Origin: an uncultured bacterium
GTDB lineage: Bacteria; Patescibacteriota; Minisyncoccia; Phycocordibacterales; UBA6065
Reading direction: 5' to 3'
Assembly: GCA_966243015.1 (NCBI GenBank)
Contig: CBIMES010000002.1
Coordinates: forward strand, 117,458-181,457
DNA: 64,000 bases
How positions within the stretch are numbered: the stretch's first letter is position 1; each line of letters opens with the position of its first letter. The notes under the pieces are model-generated. The model was given only the letters and a program-made list of their open reading frames with translations, was not told where the DNA came from and did not search any database. The position numbers and the translations under genes were made by a program. Of the stretch, positions 6,681 to 42,893 are shown in pieces.

Positions 6681-7640
6681 CTAGAACGGATTTGCCGCGC
6701 CTCGAATCTCGAAATGGACGTGAGGGCCCGTAGACTTTCCAGTCGAACCGACAAGGGCGATAGTGTCTCCCTTGGCAACAGCCTGTCCCTGGGTGATAAG
6801 GACCTTGCTTGCGTGAGCGTAGAGGGTCTGAGTTCCGTTCGGATGCGAGACCACAATGTAGGAACCGTAACCGCCGTTATAGCCAGACGATCGGACGATG
6901 ATGGCGACGCCGTCAGCGGAAGCATGGATAGGCGTACCAGTTGGCGCGGCGAGATCGACGCCGTTGTTGCCGTGAAGACCCTGGCTTCGTCGACCGCCGT
7001 CGATAGGCCTCATGTAATAATCCTTATAGAGAGGGCCGCCCGTGCTGCGGAGAGGTGCAGTAAGCTTGCCGTTTGAAGCAACGGTGGGAACCGCCTGAAT
7101 TTCGCCGTCAGGAATAAGAACGGTCGATCCGACGGCGAGCACGTCAGTTGATTTGAGGCCGTTGTAAGCCATAATTTCGTCCATGTCCGCCTTGTACTTT
7201 GTCGCAATCGAGCGGATGGTCTCGCCCTTGGCGACCGCGTGCGAAACACCGGTGATAGGAAGAATGACGAGCTCATCGCCCTCTCGAATGAGGCCCTTCT
7301 TGATGTCGTTGGCCCAAACAATGGTATTGACCGAGACGTCGAACATATCGGCGATCTGAGAGAGATTGTCGCCAGCGCGAACCACATAGAGACTGATTTC
7401 AGTCGACTTAGTCTCCGCAAAGTCTGCTGGAGTGCCCGTAACCCCCGAAGCCTGGACAAGGGCTGAGCCGTCCACAATGGTTACATCGGGACCACCTGTA
7501 GCGTTCGGATTGAGCCGAGACTGAAGGAGGGGCATATTCTGAGAGGTAAGGGTAGTGATGCCCGCATCCGCCTGCTTATTGGAAATGAGGTCTCCCACAA
7601 ACGAAAAAACGCCCGCGGAAGCGCTCAAAGGGCTCAACAT
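6681..7640 (-). CDS. LysM-domain M23-family peptidoglycan endopeptidase
   Basis: Two LysM repeats (YVVRAGDNLSQIADMF..., AVAKGETIRSIATKYK...) precede a C-terminal M23 domain (…GVDLAAPTGTPIHASADGV…GSTGKSTGPHVHFEIR). Confidence 0.85.
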   Translation of the reverse strand: MLSPLSASAGVFSFVGDLISNKQADAGITTLTSQNMPLLQSRLNPNATGGPDVTIVDGSALVQASGVTGTPADFAETKSTEISLYVVRAGDNLSQIADMFDVSVNTIVWANDIKKGLIREGDELVILPITGVSHAVAKGETIRSIATKYKADMDEIMAYNGLKSTDVLAVGSTVLIPDGEIQAVPTVASNGKLTAPLRSTGGPLYKDYYMRPIDGGRRSQGLHGNNGVDLAAPTGTPIHASADGVAIIVRSSGYNGGYGSYIVVSHPNGTQTLYAHASKVLITQGQAVAKGDTIALVGSTGKSTGPHVHFEIRGAANPF

Positions 7641-10658: not shown

Positions 10659-10664
10659 AATGAA

Positions 10665-10698
10665 AACAAAATCACCGCCTCGGGGCGGTGATTTTTTC
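10665..10698. terminator. Bidirectional hairpin terminator between rsmA and the convergent downstream gene
   Basis: AAAATCACCGCC-tcgg-GGCGGTGATTTT with T-rich flanks on both strands. Confidence 0.7.
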
Positions 10699-10701
10699 GA
10701 G

Positions 10702-11094
10702 TTACTTACCTCCGGGCAATCCCGTACCGACGAACCCCATCACGCCAAGCGAGGGAAGGGGAACGCAGGCGATACCGACGTAAATCCAACACGCCTGAAC
10801 GCCAGGGATATACGCACCATCATGGGGCACGGAAGGAATCGAGGGAAGAAAATTGGCAAAAGGAACAGTCGCATAGGGCACATATACGAGTGGCCCTGTT
10901 GCGATAACGGGGCCTCCGAGATAAAGAGGCGCAAACCAAGCCCAAATAGAAGCACTGCAGATGCAGGGAAAGATAAAAACGGGCCAGCCACCAAAGGGAA
11001 GCATGGGGGGAACGAGCGCATCGGCCTTCTGAACAGGAAAGAACAGCACGGCGAGGAGACAGAGGGAGACGGCGATTGCGGCGAGCTTCTTCAT
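10702..11094 (-). CDS. Hypothetical small secreted/hydrophobic Pro/Gly-rich protein
   Basis: The N-terminal signal peptide MKKLAAIAVSLCLLAVLFFPVQKADA is followed by a hydrophobic Pro/Gly/Val-rich sequence. No family is recognisable. Confidence 0.4.
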   Translation of the reverse strand: MKKLAAIAVSLCLLAVLFFPVQKADALVPPMLPFGGWPVFIFPCICSASIWAWFAPLYLGGPVIATGPLVYVPYATVPFANFLPSIPSVPHDGAYIPGVQACWIYVGIACVPLPSLGVMGFVGTGLPGGK

Positions 11095-11100
11095 AGATAA

Positions 11101-12204
11101 CTAATATTGTACATCAAAAACAAACGGCTCGGCGTTAAGGCCGCCATCGGCGAGAACGTACACGTAGAGCGGAATCTTCATACCCTTGACCGAAGGATCC
11201 TCGAGAACGAGCCTTGCATACTCAAGATCAGAGATGCGAAATGAAAGAGAGGTGCTCTTTGAGGGACCAAGTGTCGTATAAACGCCCTTCAATCCGCCGA
11301 GGTTCTCTCCAGAGAGCGTAATTACATCTCCGTATGAGGGATTCTCGGGCGACACCGAGATTATGCGAGGCGCAGCCACGGGATTGTTCGAAATAACCAT
11401 GTATATAGGCCTTTCGGATACTTGGGATGAGCCCCTGGCATTCGACACAGAGACGGCATACGTCCCTGAAGATACGGCCGGAACAGTAAAGGCGAGGGTT
11501 ATACCGTCCTCGCTTGCCAGACCCGAGACCGTGGTACCGCCGATATGGACGACATTGGTAGCGTCGAGAGCAAAACCCCAACCTTGAAGCCTTGCTAGGC
11601 TACCCGGCTTGTTCTGATAAGGCTGAACTGAGTAAAGAGTAAGGGGGGCCTCATTCGCGCTGCGCTGATAAAACCCTTCAACGCTCGTTTTCGCGATTTC
11701 CTCATCAGAAAGGCTCGTTTGAAACGAAGAAAGGCCGTCCGAAGAAGAAACAGGTGAAAAAAAGGGGGGCGAACTAACTGATTGAGCCCCATAGCTTCTC
11801 ACAAATGACTCATAAGCGCTTCGGGCAGGGGGGACCAAGGTCTCGACACGCGCGTCAGACGTGCCACGGAGACAGGAGGCTCGGGCAAGGGCACCCTCGA
11901 CTGAAGAGCAGAGCCCTTCATCTCCAGTTTCCTCAGCAAGCCTTGTAATACAGTCATTTTTTTCGAAAAGAGAGGCCTGTGGACACGCTGACTCGACAGG
12001 CGAAGGCGACGTCTGGGGCAAGGAAGGACGAGAGGCGAAAAAACAAGGCTTGTTTGAGTCCTCCGACTGGAAGACAAGGCACGCCCCGTCGACCATCGGG
12101 GTTGTGTCGACTGGCTGAATCTTTTCCTTTTTGAGGAAAAACCATACGGCCACAGAGGCGACTGCCAAGATGAGAAGGGAGGCGAGAAAAATTTTCTTGT
12201 TCAC
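11101..12204 (-). CDS. Hypothetical membrane-anchored surface protein with Ig-like (IPT/TIG-like) repeats. A GTG start at 12204 is likely; the track ATG at 12294 would give an N-terminal extension that overlaps the divergent gene.
   Basis: N-terminal TM (KKIFLASLLILAVASVAVWFFLKK), a Ser/Pro-rich linker, and C-terminal beta-rich repeats (…GGTTVSGLASEDGITLAFTVPAVSSGTYAVSVSN… and …ISVSPENPSYGDVITLSGENLGG…). Confidence 0.5.
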   Translation of the reverse strand: MNKKIFLASLLILAVASVAVWFFLKKEKIQPVDTTPMVDGACLVFQSEDSNKPCFFASRPSLPQTSPSPVESACPQASLFEKNDCITRLAEETGDEGLCSSVEGALARASCLRGTSDARVETLVPPARSAYESFVRSYGAQSVSSPPFFSPVSSSDGLSSFQTSLSDEEIAKTSVEGFYQRSANEAPLTLYSVQPYQNKPGSLARLQGWGFALDATNVVHIGGTTVSGLASEDGITLAFTVPAVSSGTYAVSVSNARGSSQVSERPIYMVISNNPVAAPRIISVSPENPSYGDVITLSGENLGGLKGVYTTLGPSKSTSLSFRISDLEYARLVLEDPSVKGMKIPLYVYVLADGGLNAEPFVFDVQY

Positions 12205-12245
12205 ATCAACAGTATAACAAAATAAGTGATATACTGTGACCACAT

Positions 12246-13205
12246 ATGTTTCGAAAGACACTCTCTTTTCTTGGCACGAAGATAGGACTCTCACTTATCG
12301 CGGCACTCGTGATAGTCGTCGCAGCATTCGCCTTCAAAGACATCAATATTTTCAGCGGAGCGTCTAAGAATTCAGCAGCCCTTGTCGCGGAAAAGAGCGC
12401 GACCGAGCAGGTCTTCGAGAAAGACACTGATGGCGACGGGCTCAAAGACTGGGAAGAGGCGCTCTACGGATTCGACATCAACAATCCAGACACCAAAGGG
12501 AATGGCGCGGGTGATCTCAAAGAGATCGAGAAACTCAAAACCGAATCGGCGGAAACCTCTGAGACAGGTGAGACAAGCTCATCTACGCCGACGGCCACCG
12601 ACAGATTCTCGAGGGAGCTTTTCATACGCTACGTCGAGGCGAAGCAGGCAGGTAAGGATATTACGCCCGAGTTGAGCAAAATAATAGCAGACGAGGTCCT
12701 CGCAAAGAGCTACGAGTCGGAGACTCCGGCCTTTGACGATAGTGTCCTCGTCACCGTGTCCACGAACGACACCTCTTTTATAAAGAACTACGGAAACGCG
12801 CTCGGAGCCATCGTGTCAGTGCCGCTTCCCGAAGAGACACCCAACGAGCTCTTCATCCTCGAAGAGATAACGGCCCGAGAGTCGACGACCAAGACCAACA
12901 GGGAAGACCTGGCAAAGCTGCTTGCTCGATACACCAAGATGCGAGACTCCGTAGTTGCGCTCAAGGTGCCGCTCGCGGCCAAAGCCGCCCACGCCCAACT
13001 CGCGCAGGGAATCGAGCTCATGATGGGTGTGGTGATCGGCGTTCAGAACCTCGAGACCGACCCTATCAGCTCACTGCCACGAATCTCCCAATATGAGGAC
13101 GGCGTCGACCTGCTCAGCGCCGGAACCCTGAGACTTCAGCAGTACTTCCTGAAAAGCGGTGTCAGCTTCTCCTCGCGCGACGCGGGTTACATCTTCATGC
13201 AATAA
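12246..13205 (+). CDS. Hypothetical N-terminally membrane-anchored protein, first gene of the T4SS-like locus
   Basis: TM helix LSLIAALVIVVAAFAF, then an acidic region with a DTDGDGLKD-like motif and Ser/Thr-rich linker. No family assignment. Confidence 0.45.
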   Translation: MFRKTLSFLGTKIGLSLIAALVIVVAAFAFKDINIFSGASKNSAALVAEKSATEQVFEKDTDGDGLKDWEEALYGFDINNPDTKGNGAGDLKEIEKLKTESAETSETGETSSSTPTATDRFSRELFIRYVEAKQAGKDITPELSKIIADEVLAKSYESETPAFDDSVLVTVSTNDTSFIKNYGNALGAIVSVPLPEETPNELFILEEITARESTTKTNREDLAKLLARYTKMRDSVVALKVPLAAKAAHAQLAQGIELMMGVVIGVQNLETDPISSLPRISQYEDGVDLLSAGTLRLQQYFLKSGVSFSSRDAGYIFMQ

Positions 13206-13240
13206 AGTGAGATATACTAATGTATAAGCACGAGACACAT

Positions 13241-15670
13241 ATGAAACGCCTCCTCATCAAGATAAGCTCATCTCTCATCATCTTCTCGCTTGTAAGCTCA
13301 AATCTCTTCCTCGCACTCCCCGAGAAGGCCGAAGCCCAGGGCGCCGCCGCCTCGTGTACCGCAGGTTACGTTGCGGCAGGACTCGCTGCGCTGATGGCGG
13401 TTCCCCAGAACATCATCGGAGTACCAAAGTCGCAAGCTGGAGATACGGCCCAGAACGCAGTCACCGGAGGCAGCACGAACGCGATGTCCTTCAATAACTG
13501 CATACTCAAGCCCCTTGGCCAGATGATGGTTATCTCCCTCATCCGAAACATCGGAGCAAGCATCGTCGACTGGGTGAACAGCGGCTTTCAGGGAAAGCCG
13601 TCTTTCGTGACCGACTTCGGAGGCACCCTCCTCAACGCCGCAGACCAGGCAATCGGAAAATTCATCGAGGGAACAGAGCTAGGCTTTCTCTGTAACGACT
13701 TCTCGTTCCAGATTCGCATCGCCCTCGCGCTCAAATACAGCAAGCCGTACCGAGAGGAGATAAGGTGTACGCTTTCGGGAATAGGGGACAACGTAAACAA
13801 TTTCGTCGAAAACAACGGTGGAGCAGGCTGGAACAACTGGCTGCAGCTCACCACCGAGCCAAACAATAACGTATACGGTGCATACCTCGCGGCAGACAGC
13901 GAGCTGGCGCAGCGAGCGCTCACGGCCACGGGACTTCAGGACAAGAAGATCACGATAGGGCAGGGCTTCCTCGACTTCGAAACCTGCGATGAGTACGAGA
14001 CTCCGACCGAGGCCCAGACCCGCTACCTCGAAGAGACGAAGTCTCTCAACACGTCTTCTTCAAACAACGCCTTTGATTCAAGCATCAACGTAAACACCGA
14101 CATAAACAGCTTCGAAAATTCCGGATTTGACGACGGTAGCGGCAATAACAGCATTAACAGCAACACCTTCGACACCTCGGGAGTAAACATCCCATCGTCG
14201 CCGTCATCAGCGACTTTCGACTCAAGCTTCAGCTCAACGGCGACGCCTCAGTGTAAGCCGGGCAAGATGACCTCAAAGACCCCGGGAGGGGTAATCGCGC
14301 GCAAACTCGACTCCGTACTTGGTCAGGGAGAAATCCAGGCGGCAGTGGCAGACGAGATCGACGAGGTTATCGCAGCCACCCTTAACCAGCTCGCTACCAT
14401 GGCGATTCAGGGAGCAGGTGGACTTCTTGGTCTCTCGAAGAAAAGCTCTTCTTCGGGCTCTTCATACATAAACCGATACAGGAGCCAGTACTATTCAGGC
14501 AACAGTGGGTCAACCTCATCGGGAGTCGACACGGCCGAGGACATCTATACCGTAGACGTAGGAGCGTCATCAGCACTCGACGACTATCGAGTAAGCAACT
14601 ATGACGAGGCAAATGCCATTCTCAACAACCCAGACGACGAGGGGCTTCAGGAGATTTACGATACGACAGACGATGCCGTAAACGACGGAATTGACGGTCA
14701 GAAACAGCAGATTGACGCGATAAACAACAAGGCAAACCTCAACACGCAGCAGGAGCTCAACATAGCCCTTCTCGAAAAGACAACTCAGTCATCGGGAGAC
14801 GATGGGTCGCATGCGGTTGACGGCATCAACGACACTTCGAAGTACAAGCCCGGAACAGCGACCTCGAACCAGGACAGCGCGAACCCGTGGTGGGAGGTTG
14901 ATCTCGGCAAGGACCAGAAAATAGATGAGGTGAGAATCTGGAAGTTCAGCGGCAAGGATACGCGATACACGCTCGGAACCTTCCGTGTCATCGTCAAAAA
15001 AGAGAACGGAAACCGATGGACCAGCACTTCTATCAACAGCGCATCGACGGCAAACCCAACCAAGGTAACGGTAGGGCAGACGGGTCGCTATATTCGCATC
15101 GAGAAGAACGCCTACAGCTACTCGTGCGGAAACACGCGATTCCCTCAAACCTGCTACCACCCTCTCCAGCTCGCAGAGGTTAAGGCCATTCAGTTCATAA
15201 GCGCACCAACTGGATCGACAACAACTCCGACAACAGGAAACAATAATGACGAAGAGGAGACAACGGGAGGAGGCACGGTAACGATTCAGACGCCCTCAAT
15301 GACCCAGACGGTGCTGGCAGGGAAGGACGCCGTCCTCGGCGTCGCAGTCAACGCACCTCAGAATACGACCATACCGAGCGTCGAGGTTCGGATCACCTCA
15401 AACGGAAACCCGGCAAACTTCAGCAACGTCTTTCTTAACGCAAACCTGGGGATAAATGTCTCGGGAAAAACTGGCAACGTATCCATCGGGAACGTCCCAG
15501 CGGTCAAACTCACCAATCTCGCCGCCGGAAAATCCTATAATACAAGCCTCGTATTCTCAGGAAAGATACGAGATGACCAGAAGGGGGCTCGATACGAGAT
15601 AACCATCACCGCGCAGGACAAGGACGGAGACCCGATCAGTACTGGCACACTTGATTTTGTAGTAGAATAA
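13241..15670 (+). CDS. Large secreted protein with a C-terminal F5/8 type C (discoidin) domain, a putative surface adhesin
   Basis: Signal peptide MKRLLIKISSSLIIFSLVSSNLFLALPEKAEA. Ser/Asn-rich low-complexity middle. SHAVDGINDTSKY…NPWWEVDLGKDQKIDEVRIW…GRYIRIE matches the discoidin-fold pattern. The track ORF starts 7 codons upstream at 13220. Confidence 0.6.
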   Translation: MKRLLIKISSSLIIFSLVSSNLFLALPEKAEAQGAAASCTAGYVAAGLAALMAVPQNIIGVPKSQAGDTAQNAVTGGSTNAMSFNNCILKPLGQMMVISLIRNIGASIVDWVNSGFQGKPSFVTDFGGTLLNAADQAIGKFIEGTELGFLCNDFSFQIRIALALKYSKPYREEIRCTLSGIGDNVNNFVENNGGAGWNNWLQLTTEPNNNVYGAYLAADSELAQRALTATGLQDKKITIGQGFLDFETCDEYETPTEAQTRYLEETKSLNTSSSNNAFDSSINVNTDINSFENSGFDDGSGNNSINSNTFDTSGVNIPSSPSSATFDSSFSSTATPQCKPGKMTSKTPGGVIARKLDSVLGQGEIQAAVADEIDEVIAATLNQLATMAIQGAGGLLGLSKKSSSSGSSYINRYRSQYYSGNSGSTSSGVDTAEDIYTVDVGASSALDDYRVSNYDEANAILNNPDDEGLQEIYDTTDDAVNDGIDGQKQQIDAINNKANLNTQQELNIALLEKTTQSSGDDGSHAVDGINDTSKYKPGTATSNQDSANPWWEVDLGKDQKIDEVRIWKFSGKDTRYTLGTFRVIVKKENGNRWTSTSINSASTANPTKVTVGQTGRYIRIEKNAYSYSCGNTRFPQTCYHPLQLAEVKAIQFISAPTGSTTTPTTGNNNDEEETTGGGTVTIQTPSMTQTVLAGKDAVLGVAVNAPQNTTIPSVEVRITSNGNPANFSNVFLNANLGINVSGKTGNVSIGNVPAVKLTNLAAGKSYNTSLVFSGKIRDDQKGARYEITITAQDKDGDPISTGTLDFVVE

Positions 15671-15675
15671 GGAGG

Positions 15676-17949
15676 ATGAGAAAGCTCCTCTCTCCATACA
15701 ACCTTATAACGGTCTTGCTCGTTGGAGTGAGTGTGTTTGCCTTGCCCCAGTTTGCCCATGCGGCAATCTGGGACGGCATCCTCAACGGTCTCAATTTCGG
15801 CGCAAATTGGTTCTACGGCCTTATCGCCAAGGTGTTCTGGTGGGGAACCATTCCTCTGACCAGCTGGGTGCTCTGGCTCGTGGGAGTCATGATAGACGGC
15901 ATCATCGCCCTGTCTTCTGACCCGTCTTTCTACAACGCGCCCGCCATATCAGCGTCATGGGGGATAGTCCGCGACGTTTGTAACATGCTGTTCATATTCA
16001 TCCTCATCTACGAGGGAATACGAACCATTCTTAACCTCGGCAACATGGTGAGCGTGAAGACCACCATCGCAGGAGTCATCCTTGCGGCCGTATTCATCAA
16101 CTTCAGCCTCTTCGCGACCAAAGTCGTTATCGACGTCAGCAACATAACCGCAGCATGGTTCATACAGGGCGTTAAGAACGTCGGGGGTACGGAAAGCATC
16201 AGCGATGCAGTCGTCGCATCGCTTCAGATGAAGAAACTCGTCCAGAACAAGGACTACGGCAGGGGAGCGATGACCAAGGAGTCCTTTGTGGCGGGATTGG
16301 CGATGACCGTCCTCAACTGCGTGGCGATATACGTGATGTTCAAAGTCTTCTTCCTCCTTCTCGGAAGGCTCATCACCTTCATGTTCCTCCTCGTTACCGC
16401 ACCAATCGGCTTTGTCGGCCCCCTTCTGCCTCAGCTCAAGAAATACGCCGAGAAGTGGTGGAACGAACTGAACTCGATGGCCATAATGGCGCCAATGTTC
16501 TTCCTGATGCTCTATATCACCCTGTTCATTATCGATCAGGTGGACACCTTCGTGTTCGGAGGAGCGGGATCGGCAGACCCCGTGACCGGATCGAGCTTCG
16601 CCCCGACGAACTACATCATGTTCGCGATCATCATCGCCATGCTGCTCAAGGTACTTGAGATAACCGAGGAATACAGCGGCGAAATGGCAGGGAAGATAGG
16701 TGAGCTGTTCAAGAGCAGCGTGGGCGTGGCCCTCGGTGGCGTAACCGCTGTGGGAGGTGTCATCGGCCGACAGACCCTCGGAAGGGCCGCATTTAACATC
16801 ACTCAAGATGACAAGAAGATGGGCGCACTTCGATCAGAGGCGGCCACAAGCCTGTTCGGCAAAGTGAAGCTTGCCGCAGTTACCAAGGGCGCGTCATCGA
16901 GCTTTGATGCTCGAGCCACAACCGTCGGAGGAAAAGCGTTGGGTGCCTTCAATCCAAAAATAAGCGTTGCCGGTATCTCTGTTGACGCCTCTAAGGTTGG
17001 AAAGACCGAAAGCGGTGGATTTAAAGCTGGTGCAGAGGCATTCGCCAAGAAAGAGAAGGACTGGGCGGAGAAAAATCTCGGCAAGGGCGCAGCAGGGGAG
17101 ATCAATCGAATGCGATTCTCTGAGAGCATGCAGAAGGGAACCCTTCTCACGAATTACAACAAGCTCGCCAATGCTGGTGTTGGCAAGAACGCTTACAAGG
17201 ATGCCTATAGGGATATAGAGAAGGCCGCTCGAGACAACTTCCGAAAGAAGACACTTGAGGATGCAAAGAAGGGCACCAAGGACATCAGCAACAAGATCGT
17301 GGACGAACAGATGGCAATCTACCAGATGGAGGAGGCTATCAAGTCAAATAACAACGACCAGATTAACGCCGCTCTTGAAACAGAGAAGAATAGAATCGAG
17401 GGCATCTGGTCCGAGATGGAGAAAAATGCCCTTGAGAAAAACAAGGCCGCACATATCGAATACAGCCTCACTCAGGTGGAGAAGAGGGTTGCGGAGCCGG
17501 GTCCAGTCGGTGAAGCGGCAAGGGCAACCAAGACATCACTTGAAAAAGAGCTTGCTGATTTGAGGACAAATATGACCGCAGACGAAAAGAATAAGGCAAG
17601 CGAGGAGGCGGAAAAACTCAGATCATACAAAGATTACAAGGAGAAACAGGTCGATGCCGTTAAGTCTGCGATTGAGGAGTCAAACCCTGTCGCAAAGAAG
17701 GAACTCACCAAGGGAGTCATCGGGGTCATAAAGACCAAGAGGATTGGCGAGAGAGAGGAATTCAAAGATGAGGAGGGGAAGAAAAAGAAAGTCGCCCCTA
17801 AGGGAACCCTCAACTGGGAACTCGACAAGAAGAAAACCAGCCTCAAGGAGGCCCAGGAGGAACTCGATGCGATAGAAGGAAAGAAAGAGGAGAAGAAGGA
17901 GGAAAAGAAAGAGGAGAAGAAAGAAGAAGGGGATAGCAAAAAGAAATAA
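15676..17949 (+). CDS. VirB6/TrbL-like polytopic membrane protein with a long charged coiled-coil C-terminal tail
   Basis: GGAGG RBS 6-8 nt upstream. Signal/TM N-terminus, at least 6 predicted TM helices in the first 330 aa, then a roughly 400-aa Lys/Glu-rich tail ending in EEKKEEKKEEKKEEKKEE. It sits upstream of PrgI/VirB4 homologs. Confidence 0.5.
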   Translation: MRKLLSPYNLITVLLVGVSVFALPQFAHAAIWDGILNGLNFGANWFYGLIAKVFWWGTIPLTSWVLWLVGVMIDGIIALSSDPSFYNAPAISASWGIVRDVCNMLFIFILIYEGIRTILNLGNMVSVKTTIAGVILAAVFINFSLFATKVVIDVSNITAAWFIQGVKNVGGTESISDAVVASLQMKKLVQNKDYGRGAMTKESFVAGLAMTVLNCVAIYVMFKVFFLLLGRLITFMFLLVTAPIGFVGPLLPQLKKYAEKWWNELNSMAIMAPMFFLMLYITLFIIDQVDTFVFGGAGSADPVTGSSFAPTNYIMFAIIIAMLLKVLEITEEYSGEMAGKIGELFKSSVGVALGGVTAVGGVIGRQTLGRAAFNITQDDKKMGALRSEAATSLFGKVKLAAVTKGASSSFDARATTVGGKALGAFNPKISVAGISVDASKVGKTESGGFKAGAEAFAKKEKDWAEKNLGKGAAGEINRMRFSESMQKGTLLTNYNKLANAGVGKNAYKDAYRDIEKAARDNFRKKTLEDAKKGTKDISNKIVDEQMAIYQMEEAIKSNNNDQINAALETEKNRIEGIWSEMEKNALEKNKAAHIEYSLTQVEKRVAEPGPVGEAARATKTSLEKELADLRTNMTADEKNKASEEAEKLRSYKDYKEKQVDAVKSAIEESNPVAKKELTKGVIGVIKTKRIGEREEFKDEEGKKKKVAPKGTLNWELDKKKTSLKEAQEELDAIEGKKEEKKEEKKEEKKEEGDSKKK
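17875..17932 (+). repeat. Short tandem purine-rich repeat encoding (K/E)EEKK units at the 3' end of the VirB6-like gene
   Basis: gaggagaagaaggaggaaaagaaagaggagaagaaagaagaagg has GAR-GAR periodicity. Confidence 0.6.
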
Positions 17950-17951
17950 TC

Positions 17952-18611
17952 ATGGACAAAGAACTTCAAACCCGATTTGATTCGCTCCCTGCCGACATAC
18001 AGACGGCGCTTCAGTCGACTGACATCATCGAGAAACTCCAGGCCATCGGAAGAGCCCATGATCTGCACACCGATCAGCTTGGGGGACTGGAAGCATGTGT
18101 GAGCAGAATCATGCTCGGCATAGATAAGACCGATGATTTTGTCGAGAGCATTGAAAACAACCTTAATGTAACGACGGATGATGCCATAAACATAGCGACG
18201 GAGGTAAACACGACCATATTCCTCCCCGTCAGGGAATCCCTCATGAAAATGCAGGCCGCTGGAACAGAAACCCCCGCAATAAGCAACGAACCGACCGTCG
18301 ACGAACACCCCATGAAAGCGGACATCCTCGCCGAGATAGAGGATCCGAAGCCGGTGGCTCAGCCTATATCGTCGATACGACCCGCACCAACCCCCGCAAC
18401 CCCCGTAAACACAGCACTCCCGACAATTGAACCGTCACATCTTCCAACCACCGCATCTCAGCCGAAACCGACCCCGACATTCCAGACTCCGGCACCAAAA
18501 CCCCAGAGCTCCAGTGTCACCAACGAGTTCATAGCGGGGAAGATGACCGAGACCGTGAATATGCCGCCTCAGAAATACAGCGCAGACCCTTACAGGGAAC
18601 CGCTCAACTAG
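17952..18611 (+). CDS. Hypothetical soluble protein with a Pro/Thr-rich C-terminal half (locus member)
   Basis: The start is 3 nt after the upstream stop, suggesting translational coupling. No TM helix. PAPTPATP… proline-rich tail. Confidence 0.45.
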   Translation: MDKELQTRFDSLPADIQTALQSTDIIEKLQAIGRAHDLHTDQLGGLEACVSRIMLGIDKTDDFVESIENNLNVTTDDAINIATEVNTTIFLPVRESLMKMQAAGTETPAISNEPTVDEHPMKADILAEIEDPKPVAQPISSIRPAPTPATPVNTALPTIEPSHLPTTASQPKPTPTFQTPAPKPQSSSVTNEFIAGKMTETVNMPPQKYSADPYREPLN

Positions 18612-18619
18612 GCGAAAAT

Positions 18620-18651
18620 AAAAGGCTCAGTCCACTGAGCCTTTTATTTTT
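18620..18651 (+). terminator. Rho-independent terminator with an adjacent TATAAT -10 element
   Basis: AAAGGCTCAG-tccac-TGAGCCTTTT-ATTTTTG followed by TGTGTATAAT at 18651-18660. Confidence 0.7.
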
Positions 18652-18666
18652 GTGTATAATGAACTC

Positions 18667-19113
18667 ATGCGATTCCAGGTTCCTCAGTTCATCGAGGTGG
18701 AGGACAAGATCTTCGGCCCCCTCACCATCAAGCAGTTCATCTACCTCGTTGGAGGCGCGGGACTTTCCTTTATTGCCTACACTCTCATAGGCAACATATT
18801 CATCAGCGTCATCTTCATCCTGCCGATCATGGGCCTTTCGCTCGCCCTGGCGTTCTATAAGGTCAACAACAAGCCGCTCATCAACGTCATCGAGGCCGCA
18901 TTCAACTACTTCGTGAGCAACAAGCTCTATATCTGGAAGAAAATCGACAAGCCAATAGAAAATAAGGCCCGGGAGAACCCAGCAGGGGACCTGACCTCAA
19001 ACTTCTACATACCAAAGCTGTCTGACTCGAAGCTCAAGGATCTCACCTGGAGCCTCGACATCAAGCAGAGCGCGAACCCAGCGCAGAACCAACAGGGCAA
19101 GAAAACATTTTAG
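18667..19113 (+). CDS. PrgI-family (VirB3-like) small membrane protein
   Basis: MRFQVPQFIEVEDKIFGPLTIKQFIYLVGGAGLSFIAY… matches the PrgI family pattern (vP.dl...edKiffgLt.rQ..yl). It has two TM helices and sits immediately upstream of a VirB4 homolog, as prgI-prgJ does. The track ORF starts at 18652 (GTG). ATG 18667 is preferred and lies only about 6 nt after TATAAT, so the mRNA may be leaderless. Confidence 0.6.
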   Translation: MRFQVPQFIEVEDKIFGPLTIKQFIYLVGGAGLSFIAYTLIGNIFISVIFILPIMGLSLALAFYKVNNKPLINVIEAAFNYFVSNKLYIWKKIDKPIENKARENPAGDLTSNFYIPKLSDSKLKDLTWSLDIKQSANPAQNQQGKKTF

Positions 19114-19130
19114 GCGGTATACTATAGCTC

Positions 19131-19766
19131 ATGGCGCTTAACGCGAAGACAACACAGGAGTTCGTTCCGATAAAGGAAATCCGACAGGGAATCGTCATCC
19201 TCCGCGACGACTCTCTGCGAGGCGTCGTCATGGCGTCATCGCTCAACTTCGCCCTCAAATCGGCCGACGAGCAGCAGTCAATCATCTTTCAATTCCAGAA
19301 CTTCATCAACTCGCTCGACTTCTCGGTGCAGATCTTTATCCAGTCTCGTAAGCTCGACATCAGGCCATACATCGCCCTTCTCGAGAACAGGCTTCGCGAG
19401 CAGATGAGCGATCTCCTCAAGATCCAGACGCGCGAGTACATCGAGTTCGTGAAGAACTTCACCGAGAACTCGAACATCATGACAAAGACCTTCTTCATCG
19501 TCGTACCGTACAGCCCGACGGTCGTCTCGAAGGGAAGCGTGCCGAACCCGCTCGGCAAGAAGAAGACGGGGGAGGAGACCGCCGAGCGAAGACTCGAGCT
19601 CTTCGAGGAGCATCGCAGCCAGCTCGAGCAGCGTATCAGCGTCGTCACCCAAGGTCTTAGCCGCTGCGGAATCCGCAGCGTCGAGCTGGGAACGGAGGAG
19701 ATCGTCGAGCTCTTCTACAAGATCTTCAATCCGGGCGACACCGAGAAGCCTATACCTCTCAACTAA
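19131..19766 (+). CDS. VirB4/TrbE/PrgJ-like ATPase, N-terminal domain fragment (211 aa)
   Basis: TQEFVPIKEIRQGIVILRDDSLRGVVMASSLNFALKSADEQQSIIFQFQNFINSLDFSVQIFIQSRKLDI is the characteristic N-terminus of Gram-positive-type VirB4 proteins. It ends at TAA 19764-19766, 4 nt before the next ATG. Confidence 0.7.
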   Translation: MALNAKTTQEFVPIKEIRQGIVILRDDSLRGVVMASSLNFALKSADEQQSIIFQFQNFINSLDFSVQIFIQSRKLDIRPYIALLENRLREQMSDLLKIQTREYIEFVKNFTENSNIMTKTFFIVVPYSPTVVSKGSVPNPLGKKKTGEETAERRLELFEEHRSQLEQRISVVTQGLSRCGIRSVELGTEEIVELFYKIFNPGDTEKPIPLN

Positions 19767-19770
19767 ACAC

Positions 19771-21576
19771 ATGGGAATCTTCGATTTTCTAAAAAAGAAA
19801 GAGAATAACATCAACATCTCCCCGGTTCTTCCGCAGGAGATTTACGAGGCGGGCGTGCTCGAGCTCAAGGACGTTATCGCGCCGTCGGCCCTCAAGGTCA
19901 CGCCGCGCGAGCTTAATCTCGGAGACAAAATCGTCCGAAGCTTCTTCGTCATCTCATACCCTCGATATCTCTCAGAGTCATGGTTCGCACCGATCATCAA
20001 CCTCGACAAGGTCTTCAACATTTCCATATTTGTCCACCCCGTCGACACCGCTCGAGTTCTCCGCCAGTTCCAGAAGAAAGTGGCCGAGGTGCAGAGCCAG
20101 ATCTCCATCAGGGAGCAGAAGGGCCTCGTCCGCGACCCGATGCTCGACACCGCGTACCAGGATCTCGAGGGCCTGCGCGACCAGCTCCAGCAGGCGCAGG
20201 AGAAGCTCTTTGACGTGGGCATCTACATCTCAATCTACGCCGACAGCGACGCAGAGCTCGATAAGACTGAGAGCGAGATCAAGTCGATTCTCGAGTCAAA
20301 GCTCGTGTACGTAAAGCCGGCGCTCTTCCAGCAGGAACAGGGGTACCGCAGCAACCTACCGACGGCAAACGACGAGCTCCTTGTCCATTCCAAGCTTAAC
20401 TCAAGCCCTCTTTCGTCACTTTTCCCGTTCATATCCTTCGACCTCACCTCTGACAAGGGAATCCTCTACGGCATCAACAGGCACAACTCGTCGCTCGTGC
20501 TCTTCGATCGCTTCTCGCTCGAGAACTACAACTCGATTACCTTCGCGAAGTCAGGTTCGGGTAAGTCATACGCCACCAAGCTCGAGATTCTCCGAACGCT
20601 CATGTTCGACACCGAGGTGATCGTCATCGACCCGGAGAGGGAATACGAGTACCTTGCCGAGGCAACGGGAGGAAAGTACTTCAACATCTCCCTCAACTCC
20701 GAGCATCACATCAACCCGTTCGACCTGCCAATCCCGCGCGAGGACGAGTCGACCGCCGACGTGCTTCGCTCGAACATCATCAACCTCGTAGGACTCTTCC
20801 GCATAATGATGGGAGGCCTGACCCCCGAGGAAGACGCGCTCATCGATAAGGCGATCACCGAAACCTACGCGCTCAAGGACATCACGCCTGACTCAGACTT
20901 CAGGAACACCGAACCGCCGCTCCTGTCTGACTTCGAGCTCGTGCTTGCCGGCATGGAGGGAGGGGAGTCGCTCGTGCAGAGGCTGACCAAATACACCAAG
21001 GGAACCTGGTCTGGCTTCATCAACAGGCCGACAAACGTCGACATTAACGCGAAGTTCATCGTCTTCTCGCTCCGAGACATGGAGGAGGAGCTCAAGCCCG
21101 TCGCGATGTACATCGTGACCCACTACATCTGGAACGCGGTGCGCAAGAACCTCAAGAAGCGCCTGCTCGTCATCGACGAGGCGTGGTGGATGATGAAGTC
21201 GGACGACACCGCGTCGTTCCTCCTCGGACTCGCCAAGCGAGGCCGAAAGTACTTCCTCGGACTGGCGACCATTACCCAGGACGTGGACGACTTCCTCAAG
21301 TCGCCGTACGGAATGCCGATTATCACCAACTCGTCGATACAGATGCTGCTCAAGCAGTCCCCATCGTCGATCGACAAGCTTCAGACGGTCTTCAACCTCA
21401 CGGAAGAGGAAAAATACCTCCTTCTCGAGTCAGACGTGGGAGAGGGAATCTTCTTCGTGGGACTTAAGCACGTGGCCATCAAGATTATCGCCTCGTACAC
21501 CGAGGACCAAATCATCACCTCTGACCCTTCGCAGATTCTCGCCATCAAGGAAGCGAAAAGAAACCTTCAGGGGTAG
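19771..21576 (+). CDS. VirB4/TrbE/PrgJ-like ATPase, ATPase portion (601 aa)
   Basis: …LKDVIAPSALKV…YPRYLSESWF…, Walker A FAKSGSGKSYA, Walker B LLVIDEAWWMM, and C-terminal …GLATITQDVDDF… form the VirB4 (CagE_TrbE_VirB) architecture. Together with 19131..19766 it totals about 812 aa, typical of a single VirB4. Confidence 0.8.
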   Translation: MGIFDFLKKKENNINISPVLPQEIYEAGVLELKDVIAPSALKVTPRELNLGDKIVRSFFVISYPRYLSESWFAPIINLDKVFNISIFVHPVDTARVLRQFQKKVAEVQSQISIREQKGLVRDPMLDTAYQDLEGLRDQLQQAQEKLFDVGIYISIYADSDAELDKTESEIKSILESKLVYVKPALFQQEQGYRSNLPTANDELLVHSKLNSSPLSSLFPFISFDLTSDKGILYGINRHNSSLVLFDRFSLENYNSITFAKSGSGKSYATKLEILRTLMFDTEVIVIDPEREYEYLAEATGGKYFNISLNSEHHINPFDLPIPREDESTADVLRSNIINLVGLFRIMMGGLTPEEDALIDKAITETYALKDITPDSDFRNTEPPLLSDFELVLAGMEGGESLVQRLTKYTKGTWSGFINRPTNVDINAKFIVFSLRDMEEELKPVAMYIVTHYIWNAVRKNLKKRLLVIDEAWWMMKSDDTASFLLGLAKRGRKYFLGLATITQDVDDFLKSPYGMPIITNSSIQMLLKQSPSSIDKLQTVFNLTEEEKYLLLESDVGEGIFFVGLKHVAIKIIASYTEDQIITSDPSQILAIKEAKRNLQG

Positions 21577-21624
21577 GGGAGCGGTGGATTGGCGCGCGGG
21601 GTTTCGTGCTACAATATACTCGTC

Positions 21625-22623
21625 ATGCTTCTCAAAAGGATATCTCTTATCTTTGCTTTTGTCGGTGTACTCCTCTCATGCTCCTTTGCCCATGCTCAGT
21701 CTATTCCAGGCATACAGAATCCTCTCGTCGTGAGCGTCATACCGACCGAACCGAGGGCCAATCAGACGGTCTATATCGGCATTCAGAGCTACAGCCTTGA
21801 TCTCGACAAGGCTCTCATCACTTGGTACGTAGACGGCAAGGAAACATCGAGCGGGGTCGGCCTCAAGGAATTCAGGGTACTCGCCGGACCGTCGGGTTCG
21901 ACCAAGACGGTCGACGTAAAGGTGGCAACCGTGGGCACAGGAACCTTCTCCGATACCGTCGTCATCAGGCCGGCAGACGTTGGCCTCCTCTGGGAATCTG
22001 ACACCTACACCCCTCCTTTCTACCAGGGAAAGGCTCTTCATTCTTACAACGGCTCCTTCAAAGTTACCGCGTTGCCAGAGCTCTACACTTCGGCGGGCGC
22101 AAAGATTGATGCGAAGGACTTGATCTACACCTGGAAAAAGAACGGTGAGATTCAGGGTGCCGCATCTGGATACGGCAAGAACACCTATATCGGCAGCCAG
22201 ACGAGCTACCTCAGGGAAGGGGAGGATATCTCCGTTGAGGTGTCAGCGCCGCGAGACAACGTGGTCGCCTCAAACAGCATCCTCATCACGCCAGCGGTGC
22301 CTTACGTATCGTTCTACGAGAAGAGCCCTCTCTACGGAATCATCTACGAAAAGAGCCTTCGCAACAGGACCAGCCTGACCAACGAGGAGGTCTCGATCAT
22401 CGCCGAGCCATTCTTCTTCTCAATTCCAAACCGAGACTCCTCGAACCTCTCGTATACCTGGACCCTCAACGGCAGCCCCCTCCCTGACTTCTCGGGAGAG
22501 AGTCTCATGACGCTCCGAAAGGCGGGCGGGGAAGCGGGAAGGGCTGATCTTCGCGTCGTCCTGCAGAACAACATGAAGCTCCTTCAGGGCGCCTCGCAGA
22601 ACCTAACCATTTTCTATGAATAA
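21625..22623 (+). CDS. Hypothetical secreted beta-rich protein (locus member)
   Basis: Signal peptide MLLKRISLIFAFVGVLLSCSFAHAQS. No TM helix afterwards. No family assignment. Confidence 0.45.
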   Translation: MLLKRISLIFAFVGVLLSCSFAHAQSIPGIQNPLVVSVIPTEPRANQTVYIGIQSYSLDLDKALITWYVDGKETSSGVGLKEFRVLAGPSGSTKTVDVKVATVGTGTFSDTVVIRPADVGLLWESDTYTPPFYQGKALHSYNGSFKVTALPELYTSAGAKIDAKDLIYTWKKNGEIQGAASGYGKNTYIGSQTSYLREGEDISVEVSAPRDNVVASNSILITPAVPYVSFYEKSPLYGIIYEKSLRNRTSLTNEEVSIIAEPFFFSIPNRDSSNLSYTWTLNGSPLPDFSGESLMTLRKAGGEAGRADLRVVLQNNMKLLQGASQNLTIFYE

Positions 22624-23821
22624 AACCCGAGCACTCGCCATCGCCTCAGCAAGCATCGTCACGCTCTTCGCGGGCTGGGCAACTGTCGCGTCGGCACAGA
22701 CAACCGAATACGTTCCCCTCACGACGGTTCCCGGCCTCTTCAAGCAGGGAAGCTCGACCAACCCCGTCACCATCATCAAGGGAATCTACGGACTGGCCAT
22801 CGGCATCGGCAGCGTCATCGCCACTGTCATGCTCATCATCGCCGGCTTCGAGTATATGTACCAGGAGTCAATCACGGGAAAGTCACAGGCAAAGGAGCGC
22901 ATCACCAATGCGTTTCTCGGTCTCTTGGTCATCCTTGGATCGTACATACTCCTCCGAACTATCAACCCAGCACTTGTAGACTTCAACCTCACACTCCAGG
23001 GTGGCAGCAATCGACTCAAGGGACTGATTGCCGACAAGGCATATGACGATCTAAGGGAAAGGCAGAAGGCCTTGCAGGAAGATCAGACCGCCATCAACAA
23101 GCTCAAGGCAAATGGCGTGGAAATGGAGAAGCTGATTGAGCAGAAAGAGGACACCATGCGCGGCTACGACTGCGAGAACGAGGATAAGGCTGATTGCGAG
23201 AGAATCGAGAAAGAGATCGCCGAGCTTGAAACGCGAGTAAAAGAGAACACGGACAACATCGCCGCAACGCAAATAGAGCAGGGAAAGGGGATTGCCTCGA
23301 CCTATGTGTACGAACTCCTCGAAACCAGGTATTGGGAGCTCGCCGGCAAGCTCAGACAGGACAACGGTCAGGGGGAGCTTGAGTTCGACGAATTCCTTCA
23401 GGCAGCCTCAGCCGCATACAAGAGCTCAATCGACGGCGTGGAGAAACAGCTGGTCGCCATAAAAGCCGTACAGACGAACGATGCCGGGATCCTGAAACAA
23501 AAGACGGATACCATCAGAGACCTCGAGAACGAGAAAAAATATCTCGCCCTCGCCGCTACGTACGTCATTTGGCAGAACAGCTATGACAATAACGGCCTCG
23601 ATCTCACGGATCTAGCGAACAGCATCAAGTACAGGACTGATGCCTACACAAAGAAGCTCAAGGAGGCGGGTTTCAGCAACGAGTTCATCGAGGAGCGCGT
23701 AAAACGCGACAGAACCAATCTCATAACCGCATTCTCGATGTCTGAGGAGGTACAGGAAGACTGCGCATCAAATACCGATGTGCTCCCGGCCGACTACGCA
23801 CAGCTCTGCTCAAACGCATAA
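22616..23821 (+). CDS. VirB2/TrbC-like T4SS pilin-like protein with a roughly 270-aa C-terminal coiled-coil extension
   Basis: Signal peptide (…VASA|Q) is followed by two hydrophobic helices (IYGLAIGIGSVIATVMLIIAGFEYMY and ITNAFLGLLVILGSYILLRTI), the classic T4SS pilin topology. The C-terminal part is coiled-coil-like. The start overlaps the upstream gene by 8 nt. Confidence 0.5.
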   Translation: MNKTRALAIASASIVTLFAGWATVASAQTTEYVPLTTVPGLFKQGSSTNPVTIIKGIYGLAIGIGSVIATVMLIIAGFEYMYQESITGKSQAKERITNAFLGLLVILGSYILLRTINPALVDFNLTLQGGSNRLKGLIADKAYDDLRERQKALQEDQTAINKLKANGVEMEKLIEQKEDTMRGYDCENEDKADCERIEKEIAELETRVKENTDNIAATQIEQGKGIASTYVYELLETRYWELAGKLRQDNGQGELEFDEFLQAASAAYKSSIDGVEKQLVAIKAVQTNDAGILKQKTDTIRDLENEKKYLALAATYVIWQNSYDNNGLDLTDLANSIKYRTDAYTKKLKEAGFSNEFIEERVKRDRTNLITAFSMSEEVQEDCASNTDVLPADYAQLCSNA

Positions 23822-23827
23822 AACAAC

Positions 23828-25060
23828 ATGTCGAAAAAAACATTCACGCTCTTCATCATAGTACTCCTGGGAATCATCGCCTTCCTCGGCTGGTTCTTTT
23901 TCTTCCGCGCGAATGAGTCAACGCTTCCCGGTGACCCCAACCAGCCGACCGACCTCTTTCCCTTTGGGCAGGGGAGCACAACCCCTGATGGAAACAACAC
24001 GGGGCAAACGGGCAGCTCGACGGGGCAGATAGACATCTCGGGTGACACCCCACGCCTTCCTCGACTAAGACAAATCTGGCGAGACCAGACCGCAGGCGCC
24101 ACGTTCTTTCCAGGCACGGGAACCACGACAAGCGTGAGGTTCGTCGACAGAGCAACGGGTCACATCTACGAGTCTCCTATCGAGGCGACGGGGGAGACCA
24201 AGATATCGAACGTCACCATCCCACAGGTGCACGAAGCGCTTTGGGCATCAAACGGAAACGAGCTCATCTTCCGCTACCTCAGGAGCGATTCGATGACGAT
24301 ACAGTCGTTCTATGGAACGCTCGCCACATCGAGCGCCACTACAACCATGACGGTGGAAGGTTACTTCTTGCCCGCAAACATCCGCGACATCTCGGTATCA
24401 GGCGACAGGATTCTCTATTTCAACCCAGCCGTTCAGATCGGAAGCCTCGTCGACGCACGCGTCGACGGCACAGGAAGACGCGTGGTCATGAGCTCCGAGG
24501 CACGAGACTGGTCTCTCTCATACACCAACACAAAAACCGCATTCCTCGAAACCAGGCCAAGCGGTCTCGTAAAGGGATTCGGCTACGCCCTTAACCTCGC
24601 CACGGGAGCGACTTCAAAAATAGCTGGTGACATACTCGGTCTCACCGGAACCATAAACCCAGCAGGGGACAGAGCGCTTATGTCAGCGCAGGAGGGCGGA
24701 AGCATCGTCACGGCAGGCTACGACATGACGTCAAAGAGGGCCTCCACCCTTTCCATCAAAACCCTTTCCGACAAATGCGTGTGGAGCAGGAAAAAGGCCG
24801 AGATGGCATACTGCGCAGTGCCCTCAAACATTCCGTCGGGAACATATCCTGATGACTGGTATCGAGGCGACACGAGCTTCTCCGATCGACTCTGGACCGT
24901 CGACCTCTCGACAGGGGAGACCGATCTCATCATGGACCCATCCTATGAGACCGGCCAGAGCATGGACATCATGAAAATCAGCGTGGACAGCGGGGAGGAG
25001 TACATTACATTCACCAACAAGAAGGACATGAGCCAGTGGCTGCTGAGGATCGAGGAATAA
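23828..25060 (+). CDS. Hypothetical N-terminally anchored extracytoplasmic beta-rich protein (last locus gene)
   Basis: TM helix FTLFIIVLLGIIAFLGWFFFF, then a Gly/Thr-rich linker and a roughly 330-aa domain. A bidirectional terminator follows. Confidence 0.45.
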   Translation: MSKKTFTLFIIVLLGIIAFLGWFFFFRANESTLPGDPNQPTDLFPFGQGSTTPDGNNTGQTGSSTGQIDISGDTPRLPRLRQIWRDQTAGATFFPGTGTTTSVRFVDRATGHIYESPIEATGETKISNVTIPQVHEALWASNGNELIFRYLRSDSMTIQSFYGTLATSSATTTMTVEGYFLPANIRDISVSGDRILYFNPAVQIGSLVDARVDGTGRRVVMSSEARDWSLSYTNTKTAFLETRPSGLVKGFGYALNLATGATSKIAGDILGLTGTINPAGDRALMSAQEGGSIVTAGYDMTSKRASTLSIKTLSDKCVWSRKKAEMAYCAVPSNIPSGTYPDDWYRGDTSFSDRLWTVDLSTGETDLIMDPSYETGQSMDIMKISVDSGEEYITFTNKKDMSQWLLRIEE

Positions 25061-25862: not shown

Positions 25863-25915
25863 ATGATTATTGTGCGGGCTAAGCCATAGTAGCCTATTTC
25901 AGACCCTTACTCAAT

Positions 25916-26242
25916 CTACGCGAGACCAGCTTTTTTCAACGTAGCCTGTATATCAGAGGAAACCGCTTCAGGGGAAGCGGCTAGACACTCCTTCTTAGGG
26001 AGAATCATGGCAAATACCGGTGTTTTAAGGCTTTTCTTTGCGGACCTGAGGGCAAGATACACCTTTCGGCGCACGGAATTCCTGTCGACGGCCCTGGCTG
26101 CCACTTTTTTGGACACAGGCACGGCGAACTTCGCCCTCTCGGCGGGAACGAAGCGCAAAGAAAGAAGCGTCCCGAAGACGCTTTTTCCTTGAGAGAGAGC
26201 TGCTACCTCTTTTGTGGTGAGACGGTCAGCCTTCCTGAGCAT
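25916..26242 (-). CDS. rnpA: Ribonuclease P protein component
   Basis: 108 aa basic protein. …FAVPVSKKVAARAVDRNSVRRKVYLALR… matches the RnpA RNR motif region. It lies between rpmH and yidC. Confidence 0.8.
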   Translation of the reverse strand: MLRKADRLTTKEVAALSQGKSVFGTLLSLRFVPAERAKFAVPVSKKVAARAVDRNSVRRKVYLALRSAKKSLKTPVFAMILPKKECLAASPEAVSSDIQATLKKAGLA

Positions 26243-26245
26243 GGG

Positions 26246-26383
26246 TTAGATCTTAACAATCTTCTTTCGACCCTTCTGTCGTCGTCGGACGAGCACCTTC
26301 TTGCCGGTAGGGGAGTTCTTTCGGGCAAGGAAGCCATGGGCTCGAGCGCGCTTCCTGTTCTTTGTTTTGTATACGATTGCCAT
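26246..26383 (-). CDS. rpmH: 50S ribosomal protein L34 (not in the supplied ORF track because it is under 60 aa)
   Basis: The reverse strand translates to MAIVYKTKNRKRARAHGFLARKNSPTGKKVLVRRRQKGRKKIVKI, the L34 signature. It is directly upstream of rnpA and divergent from dnaA. Confidence 0.85.
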   Translation of the reverse strand: MAIVYKTKNRKRARAHGFLARKNSPTGKKVLVRRRQKGRKKIVKI

Positions 26384-42887: not shown

Positions 42888-42893
42888 CACTGT

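Follow-up and report, generated by a model that had tools for sequence, protein, structure and literature searches.

A candidate partner-binding protein with a discoidin-type domain in a chromosomal type IV secretion operon of an uncultured Paceibacteria bacterium

Patescibacteria account for a large share of bacterial diversity and live mostly attached to other cells, and the question raised by the locus described here is whether one of their secretion operons encodes an element that makes such a contact. The locus lies in a 64,000-nucleotide (nt) stretch (the window) of contig CBIMES010000002.1, assembly GCA_966243015.1, from an uncultured bacterium of the order Phycocordibacterales, and the gene in question comes second in a type IV secretion system (T4SS) operon of ten genes, all on one strand (12246-25060). 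An earlier note on this DNA had described the gene product as a secreted protein with a C-terminal discoidin domain and had suggested an adhesin directed at the surface of another cell. The answer that we put forward, and for which we hold the balance to be about even, is that the window protein is an extracellular structural subunit of a probably origin-proximal, chromosomal Paceibacteria T4SS or pilus, and that it shows exchangeable binding modules to a partner cell. In Saccharibacteria a T4SS is essential for epibiotic growth, as established in the one system tested (PMC12857230). A discoidin domain by itself is ordinary, and NCBI already names homologues "discoidin domain-containing protein"; what is new is the fusion of discoidin and immunoglobulin (Ig)-like domains to a widespread, unnamed and syntenic T4SS component, together with the pattern in which these heads are exchanged.

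The gene and its product are laid out as follows, with residues numbered from the upstream start at 13220; pLDDT (predicted local distance difference test) is the confidence score of AlphaFold2 (AF2) models.

13220-15670, + strand: the open reading frame (ORF) under study, 816 amino acids (aa) from 13220 and 809 aa from 13241, which is the internal Met8.
13241-13339, + strand: Sec signal peptide, residues 8-40, with a conserved signal-peptidase-I site AEA/Q (the slash marks the cut).
13340-14014, + strand: part a of the conserved N-terminal module (N-module), residues 41-265, predicted alpha-helical, the most conserved region, with Cys158, Cys183 and Cys256.
14015-14251, + strand: S/N/T-rich variable insert, residues 266-344, 52% S+N+T, pLDDT below 50.
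14252-14509, + strand: part b of the N-module, residues 345-430, with C345, T354-P-G356, a helix "ADEI(D/N)E..AA..NQL" and G401-L402.
14510-14746, + strand: acidic, partly helical linker, residues 431-509, low pLDDT, 24-68% identity among relatives.
14747-15199, + strand: discoidin / F-type-lectin-like beta-sandwich, residues 510-660, from Pfam, AF2 and Foldseek.
15200-15280, + strand: Thr/Gly-rich linker, residues 661-687.
15281-15667, + strand: C-terminal Ig-like beta-sandwich, residues 688-816, eight strands in the AF2 model, pLDDT 83-97.

The ORF is real, but the length and start first proposed for it, 816 aa from 13241, do not belong together. Judged by sequence comparison, 13241 is probably the true start because homologues begin at that Met: a relative of 809 aa that is 100% identical to the window protein begins at the Met8 equivalent, and other homologues begin "MK..." there too. 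A hydrophobic stretch at residues 11-34 leads into P-x-KAEA/Q, and the consensus P-x-KAEAQ is kept across the family, so that the predicted Sec signal peptide with its conserved cleavage site agrees with the secreted status claimed before. Motif and transmembrane scans of the window protein found no LPxT[GAS] or LPXTG motif and no C-terminal transmembrane or hydrophobic segment, much as the earlier note had seen no obvious sortase anchor, and sortase anchoring is rejected for want of an LPXTG sorting signal at the C-terminus. The protein has eight cysteines, and four of these do not vary in an alignment of 84 diverse relatives, which fits an extracytoplasmic location. The signal peptide and the low-complexity region described earlier both exist, but they are not adjacent, as the conserved residues 41-265 intervene and the S/N/T-rich stretch is confined to residues 266-344.

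The discoidin assignment stands on profile and on predicted structure. Two Pfam profiles exceed their gathering scores on the window protein, PF22633 over residues 531-627 (E=2.7e-12, 47.6 bits against a cut-off of 27.8) and PF00754, the profile that had been suggested as a check, over residues 522-631 (E=4e-8, 33.9 bits against 28.2). The AF2 model of residues 490-816, made with 40 homologues, has a mean pLDDT of 83.9 and consists of two beta-sandwiches parted by a disordered Thr/Gly linker, and within it residues 510-660 or thereabouts form an all-beta sandwich with a block pLDDT mostly of 87-96, which is the fold that the earlier note had expected. When this model was run by Foldseek against PDB, 217 matches at E<=1e-3 were obtained and the discoidin superfamily filled the top of the list; the best single-domain matches are the F-type lectin modules 2j22, 3le0, 4gwj and 2j1r, with target-normalised template-modelling scores of 0.73-0.82 (0.78-0.82 for the first three) and 25-30% identity. 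Sequence comparison by phmmer against PDB likewise gives striped bass FBP32 (3.1e-11), SpX (3.7e-10) and lectinolysin (3-4e-7). Of the two outcomes that the earlier note had named as refuting it, no significant profile match and a fold other than a beta-sandwich, neither occurred. The domain is real, then, but it is not C-terminal as had been thought, since the T/G linker and the 129-residue Ig-like domain come after it. F-type lectins bind fucose via the motif HX(26)RXDX(4)R/K (PMC5297725). In HMMER alignments to SpX and lectinolysin the corresponding positions of the window protein are S549, F576, G578 and Y583/T584, and across 40 relatives the same columns are occupied by Ala/Gly/Ser, Val, Asp/Gly/Asn and Thr. 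A canonical fucose lectin is therefore rejected on the absence of the His/Arg/Arg binding motif: the modelled fold is F-type-lectin-like, and a ligand would be bound other than through the canonical fucose site. A literature search on discoidin together with Patescibacteria found nothing relevant.

The earlier note passed over the N-module, which ties the protein to the secretion machine and which adds more that is new than the discoidin-type part does. With about 330 residues (41-265 and 345-430), predicted to be helical, it is the largest conserved part of the window protein. BLAST against 71 homologues shows that residues ~8-265 and ~345-430 are common to much shorter, discoidin-free proteins of 480-550 aa, and because both of its flanks recur in these shorter homologues the S/N/T-rich stretch is an insertion in the N-module rather than a spacer. 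This insert lies between the invariant Cys256 and Cys345, is flanked by two short predicted strands, is short or absent in homologues, and shows 16-71% identity among relatives whose N-modules are 54-92% identical. Part a carries the invariant motif W118-x-N-x-G-F-x-G-x-P127, and in the alignment of 84 diverse members the invariant residues are Trp118, Gly122, Phe123, Gly125, Pro127, Cys158, Cys183, Gly249, Cys256, Cys345, Pro355, Gly356 and Gly401. Asp, Glu, His, Ser and Lys are nowhere invariant in that alignment, and this lack of any invariant acidic or nucleophilic residue favours a structural protein over an enzyme. Scanning the window protein matched the N-module to no named family in Pfam or NCBIfam, and a match to PDB 6e36, "antigen I/II" (E=1.5e-4), was judged spurious, the alignment being gappy and the profile positions lying beyond the conserved N-module.

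The N-module family is large. Searched with a profile of the trimmed-module alignment and counted as clusters at 50% identity, it comprises 6058 clusters at E<=1e-3, of which 3502 are found at E<=1e-30, and a scan of GTDB located it in at least 580 species genomes. Among the 80 species loci that were kept, nearly all are titled as candidate phyla radiation (CPR) or uninformatively ("bacterium"), and one is titled Acidimicrobiales; homologues of the window protein are named Paceibacterota, Parcubacteria and Taylorbacteria, names that put the organism in the same group. A tblastn search of 72,556 plasmids with the N-module gave no match, so the gene is not a plasmid-borne conjugation gene. The family and its discoidin-bearing forms did not come up when PMC12102498 and PMC12857230 were searched by term.

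The other nine genes of the operon, which are separated from one another and from the gene under study by 14, 5, 2, 40, 17, 4, 12, -8 and 6 nt in order, are these.

12246-13205, + strand: 319-aa protein, first gene, with a transmembrane segment at residues 5-40 and a weak thrombospondin-type-3 repeat (TSP3_bac, E=0.0039, below threshold).
15676-17949, + strand: 757-aa polytopic membrane protein with a signal peptide, ~6-7 transmembrane segments (residues 58-332) and a 420-aa Lys/Glu-rich tail.
17952-18611, + strand: 219-aa protein, no transmembrane segment and no family match.
18652-19113, + strand: PrgI (VirB3-like), PF12666 at E=2.4e-10.
19131-19766, + strand: TrsD-like protein, 211 aa, NF045975 VirB4_plasma at E=4e-12 and TrsD at E=9.5e-5.
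19771-21576, + strand: VirB4 ATPase of CD1110 / MPF-FATA type, 601 aa, NF045971 at E=1.8e-112 (377 bits against a cut-off of 325) and PF19044.
21589-22623, + strand: 344-aa exported protein, no family match.
22616-23821, + strand: VirB2-like T4SS pilin, 401 aa, PF18895 over residues 47-107 at E=3.2e-7 (30.8 bits against a cut-off of 26.6).
23828-25060, + strand: 410-aa protein, last gene, with an N-terminal transmembrane segment.

With PrgI, the TrsD-like protein, VirB4 and the T4SS pilin identified by family profiles, the operon is what the earlier note took it for, T4SS-like, but the gene does not stand at its head as was stated there; it comes second, after the gene of the 319-aa transmembrane protein, which has no sequence match in PDB. 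In the 894-position VirB4 model of a mycoplasma integrative and conjugative element (NF045975), the TrsD-like protein aligns with positions 101-233, corresponding to the N-terminal part of VirB4. The VirB4 of this operon is split over two genes with a 4-nt gap, and every related locus that was examined has the same split. The pilin protein is unusually long, with an extension of ~280 residues that gives weak coiled-coil-type matches (spectrin repeat, MakB). In the 757-aa neighbour, which is VirB6-like by position and topology only, residues ~735-757 are a near-perfect (KEEKKEE)n run, and in its orthologues, 750 to 979 aa long, the tail accounts for the added length.

The position of the gene is conserved, as the earlier note had proposed to check. 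All ten operon proteins were mapped by BLASTP over a sample of 85 loci, made up of the window itself, four contigs reached through their proteins and 80 of the at least 580 species loci, and in 80 of the 85 the N-module gene is flanked on the same strand by the 319-aa transmembrane protein on the 5' side and by the polytopic protein on the 3' side. On contigs that reach far enough, PrgI, TrsD, VirB4, the 344-aa protein, the pilin and the 410-aa protein also occur, nearly always with order and strand unchanged, and this order holds with or without the discoidin domain. Counts from promoter and terminator scans were not above shuffled expectation and, being at chance, say nothing on the ends of the operon. 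Directly after the operon come yidC (- strand), dnaA and dnaN (25107-29221), the cumulative GC skew has its minimum at 26-28 kb and the AT skew changes sign at 28-30 kb; from the dnaA/dnaN genes and the skew minimum we conclude that the T4SS operon lies beside a probable replication origin.

The C-terminal part of the family is exchangeable. Hidden Markov models (HMMs) built from the window protein's own discoidin and Ig regions and run over the family detected the discoidin domain in 16 of the 85 loci and in 48 of 207 family proteins (carriers of 592-977 aa), and the Ig domain without the discoidin domain in several loci (513-567 aa), whereas the majority of the family (median 521 aa) has a helical C-terminal region with conserved Cys instead. 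Among close relatives the N-module is 54-92% identical, the discoidin domain 42-76% and the Ig domain 22-65%, the last being the fastest-evolving domain of the protein; against PDB sequences it gave only faint cadherin-like matches. On a neighbour-joining tree of the N-module (drawn without support values) the forms with discoidin and/or Ig domains fall in one stretch of the leaf order that a few helical forms interrupt, and the Ig-only forms sit amid discoidin-plus-Ig groups. A receptor-binding subunit would be expected to look like this, with one part for docking that stays constant and heads that change fast and can be exchanged. Some further long forms of the family were noted: one locus (L045, 1588-4032) has an end that by eye is TIG-like ("LTINGTGFTG..."), four others (L036, L039, L047 and L048) have discoidin-like segments too divergent for the discoidin HMM, and two family members match PF16403, a bacterial surface Ig-like domain.

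Taking the folds, the export signal, the operon membership and the modularity as they were found above, we propose a hypothetical mechanism for what would follow from them, namely docking, exposure and binding. The protein would be exported by Sec and cut by signal peptidase at AEA/Q. The helical N-module, probably braced by disulfides between its four invariant Cys, would then dock on the machine, and its partner there may be the adjoining polytopic membrane protein and/or the fibre of the VirB2-like pilin, as the strict gene order and the lack of an anchor of its own suggest. The disordered S/N/T-rich, acidic and T/G-rich linkers would hold the lectin-like and Ig-like domains, whose folds are predicted, off the cell, and these heads may bind a glycan or another surface polymer of the partner, by a site other than the canonical fucose site, thereby giving the machine its target contact. 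The adhesin suggested by the earlier note fits the export, the absence of an anchor, the T4SS operon and the fast-evolving heads, but the adhesin function itself is one that we infer from sequence and models.

Several observations weigh against this mechanism. The N-module was modelled by AF2 as all-alpha with low confidence (pLDDT 60.7); Foldseek of this low-confidence model against PDB returned nothing below E=4.7, and the N-module profile against PDB sequences returned only coiled-coil and low-complexity noise. The 757-aa neighbour, the supposed platform, gave no match as VirB6/TrbL in Pfam, NCBIfam, a PDB profile search or hhalign against R751 TrbL. A relaxed regular expression for the fucose motif HX(26)RXDX(4)R/K had 0 matches in the window protein and 0 in the 48 discoidin-bearing relatives, so that lectin activity is not assured; and with fucose lectins as the closest solved relatives and the motif absent, the cell's own envelope could equally be the target. 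Most family members have no beta-sandwich module, and adhesion through a lectin domain cannot therefore be the general function of the family.

The own-envelope target leads to a different reading, in which the discoidin and Ig domains bind wall or surface-layer (S-layer) glycan of the producing cell and so hold the T4SS component and the channel across the envelope. The protein has neither a covalent nor a membrane anchor, domains of the carbohydrate-binding-module (CBM) types CBM32 and CBM47 such as those matched in PDB commonly bind bacterial or environmental glycans, and the canonical host-type fucose site is absent, all of which would suit self-anchoring. However, most family members lack the discoidin and Ig domains and still keep the operon position, so anchoring cannot depend on them, and evolution is faster in the binding modules than elsewhere in the protein, which is more typical of a changing foreign target than of the cell's own conserved wall; we regard self-anchoring as unlikely. 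We consider it very improbable that the N-module is a new wall-degrading enzyme in the role of VirB1 with the discoidin domain as its CBM. Discoidin/CBM32 modules are indeed frequent on glycoside hydrolases, which supplied many of the Foldseek matches, few Patescibacteria T4SS loci have a VirB1 homologue (PMC12102498), and the N-module is predicted to be all-alpha, like lysozyme-like folds. Against this, none of the residues Asp, Glu, His, Ser and Lys is invariant in the N-module across the 84 diverse members, no hydrolase family in Pfam or NCBIfam was matched, and a candidate of VirB1 type is already present nearby and in related loci, a LysM-M23 peptidase at 6681-7640.

A sharper version of the partner-binding mechanism, which overlaps with it, takes the protein for a VirB5-type tip or stalk subunit: as the VirB5/TrbJ equivalent of the CPR, the N-module would seed the VirB2-like pilus at the VirB6-like platform, travel at the pilus tip and bear the lectin and Ig domains there as an adhesin. 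We hold this to be possible but doubtful. Immediately 3' of the gene comes that of the polytopic protein, an arrangement like that in R751, where trbJ precedes trbL with only the small trbK between them, and in Bacteroides, where a DUF4141 gene and traJ are neighbours (PMC10434189). DUF4141 (PF13605) is matched by 12 of the 84 family members (best E=8.4e-10), NCBIfam TrbJ models are matched by a few members over the first ~50 residues, R751 TrbJ itself matches DUF4141 (17.6 bits) and PF07996 (22.2 bits), and one TrbJ cluster carries PF13605 in a precomputed table. The mature N-termini are alike ("SGLPVADAGNIVQSTINAIKS" in the family and "AGIPVIDGTNLSQNIMTAIES" in TrbJ), and the operon encodes a VirB2-like pilin in a group for whose T4SS no VirB5 has been reported. 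On the other side, hhalign of family profiles against a TrbJ alignment gave probabilities of 0.4% and 1.2% over just 9 and 18 columns, and the DUF4141 and TrbJ matches that were inspected individually are below curated cut-offs and cover only the signal peptide plus ~30 residues. The mature N-terminal motif G-I-P-V-x-D-x-x-N-x-x-Q is found sub-threshold in many relatives but not in the window protein, which has the Ala/Gly-rich "GAAASCTAGYVAAGLAALMAVPQNIIGV" instead and no match at E<=1 to PF07996, PF13605 or the TrbJ models. The N-module is, at ~330 residues, larger than the 254-residue TrbJ, and Foldseek with the poor query model matched no solved VirB5 structure. In view of the failures in hhalign and at the cut-offs, and of a window N-terminus that lacks the motif, "VirB5-like" is kept as a hypothesis and not as a classification. 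In its most general form, to which we give rather little credence, the hypothesis would make the whole N-module family the unrecognised VirB5-equivalent of the monoderm Patescibacteria T4SS: the subunit would begin the VirB2-like pilus at the polytopic platform and finish at the pilus tip, and the C-terminal swaps (helical, Ig, discoidin plus Ig, TIG-like) would decide to which host cell each ultra-small bacterium attaches and on which it feeds.

What the partner-binding mechanism offers is a concrete, clonable candidate for a host-contact element in systems for which the survey of Patescibacteria T4SS reports VirB2-like pilins and "no adhesins" (PMC12102498). Genomes can moreover be sorted by head type through their C-terminal modules, and if the VirB5-equivalent hypothesis were true, these modules would provide a host-range marker that can be read from sequence for a large part of the CPR.

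The surroundings of the operon within the window contain several features of their own. A 397-aa protein with one transmembrane segment and an IPT/TIG domain (PF01833, E=3.3e-8), likely a surface protein, is encoded divergently at 11101-12294 (- strand); this ORF, as listed, shares 49 nt with the start of the gene at 12246, and its real start probably lies further inside. The LysM-M23 peptidase at 6681-7640 (- strand) keeps its relative position in three related loci (L001, L002 and L003) and resembles in kind the VirB1-like wall hydrolases reported to accompany VirB4 in Paceibacteria (PMC12102498). A 146-aa ORF at 10660-11100 (+ strand) is Arg/Gly/Lys-rich, faces an equally long ORF on the opposite strand and may not be a real gene, and at 10668-10695 (- strand) a strong hairpin of 12 pairs is followed by a T-run. 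At 42815-42888 (+ strand) ARAGORN calls a "tRNA-Stop" with anticodon TTA (Rfam tRNA score 69.2 bits); a suppressor tRNA is rejected, as the anticodon arm GCUCC-CUUUUAA-GGAGA is the usual tRNA-Lys(UUU) loop, and the call looks like a one-base mis-registration of an ordinary tRNA-Lys. The T4SS ORFs read through normally with table 11.

The window protein can be compared with known systems at each of its parts. With the F-type lectins (FTLD/CBM47; striped bass FBP32 3cqo, S. pneumoniae SpX modules 2j1r/2j22, the lectin domain of S. mitis lectinolysin 3le0) its discoidin-type domain shares the fold, a sequence similarity of E=3e-11 to 4e-7 and an "NPWWxVDL" core, but the His/Arg/Arg of those lectins is replaced by Ser549, Phe576 and Thr584, and the domain is fused to a module of a T4SS operon and not to a toxin or an enzyme, nor is it a free lectin. 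The VirB5/TrbJ/TraC minor pilins, with their adhesin versions CagL of H. pylori and the Trw VirB5 copies of Bartonella, are Sec-exported, helical and encoded beside a polytopic T4SS protein, like the N-module with its predicted helices, and in Bartonella variable VirB5 copies have been proposed to serve host-specific binding (PMC12857230); they differ in that no significant similarity by profile or fold was found, and in that binding would here sit in the appended beta-sandwiches rather than in the helical body. The DUF4141 proteins (PF13605) of Bacteroides conjugative transposons are similarly encoded beside a polytopic T4SS protein, and the matches of 12 of the 84 members connect them to the family, but these matches extend only over the N-terminal 30-45 residues, those inspected are below the cut-off, and the window protein has none. 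The PrgB-type adhesins of Gram-positive conjugative T4SS (pCF10) bind surfaces, accompany an MPF-FATA-type T4SS in a monoderm and have Ig-like domains, as does the window protein, a candidate for surface binding, whereas the window protein lacks an LPXTG anchor and has no Pfam match to a PrgB-type adhesin domain; the published survey reports that no PrgB homologue was found in Patescibacteria (PMC12102498). At the level of the operon as a whole, the Patescibacteria T4SS described by Quinonero-Coronel et al. 2025 (PMC12102498) also have a FATA-type VirB4, TrsD, PrgI and a VirB2-like pilin, their operon likewise includes neither a relaxase nor a coupling protein, and they too lie next to dnaA/dnaN and ksgA.

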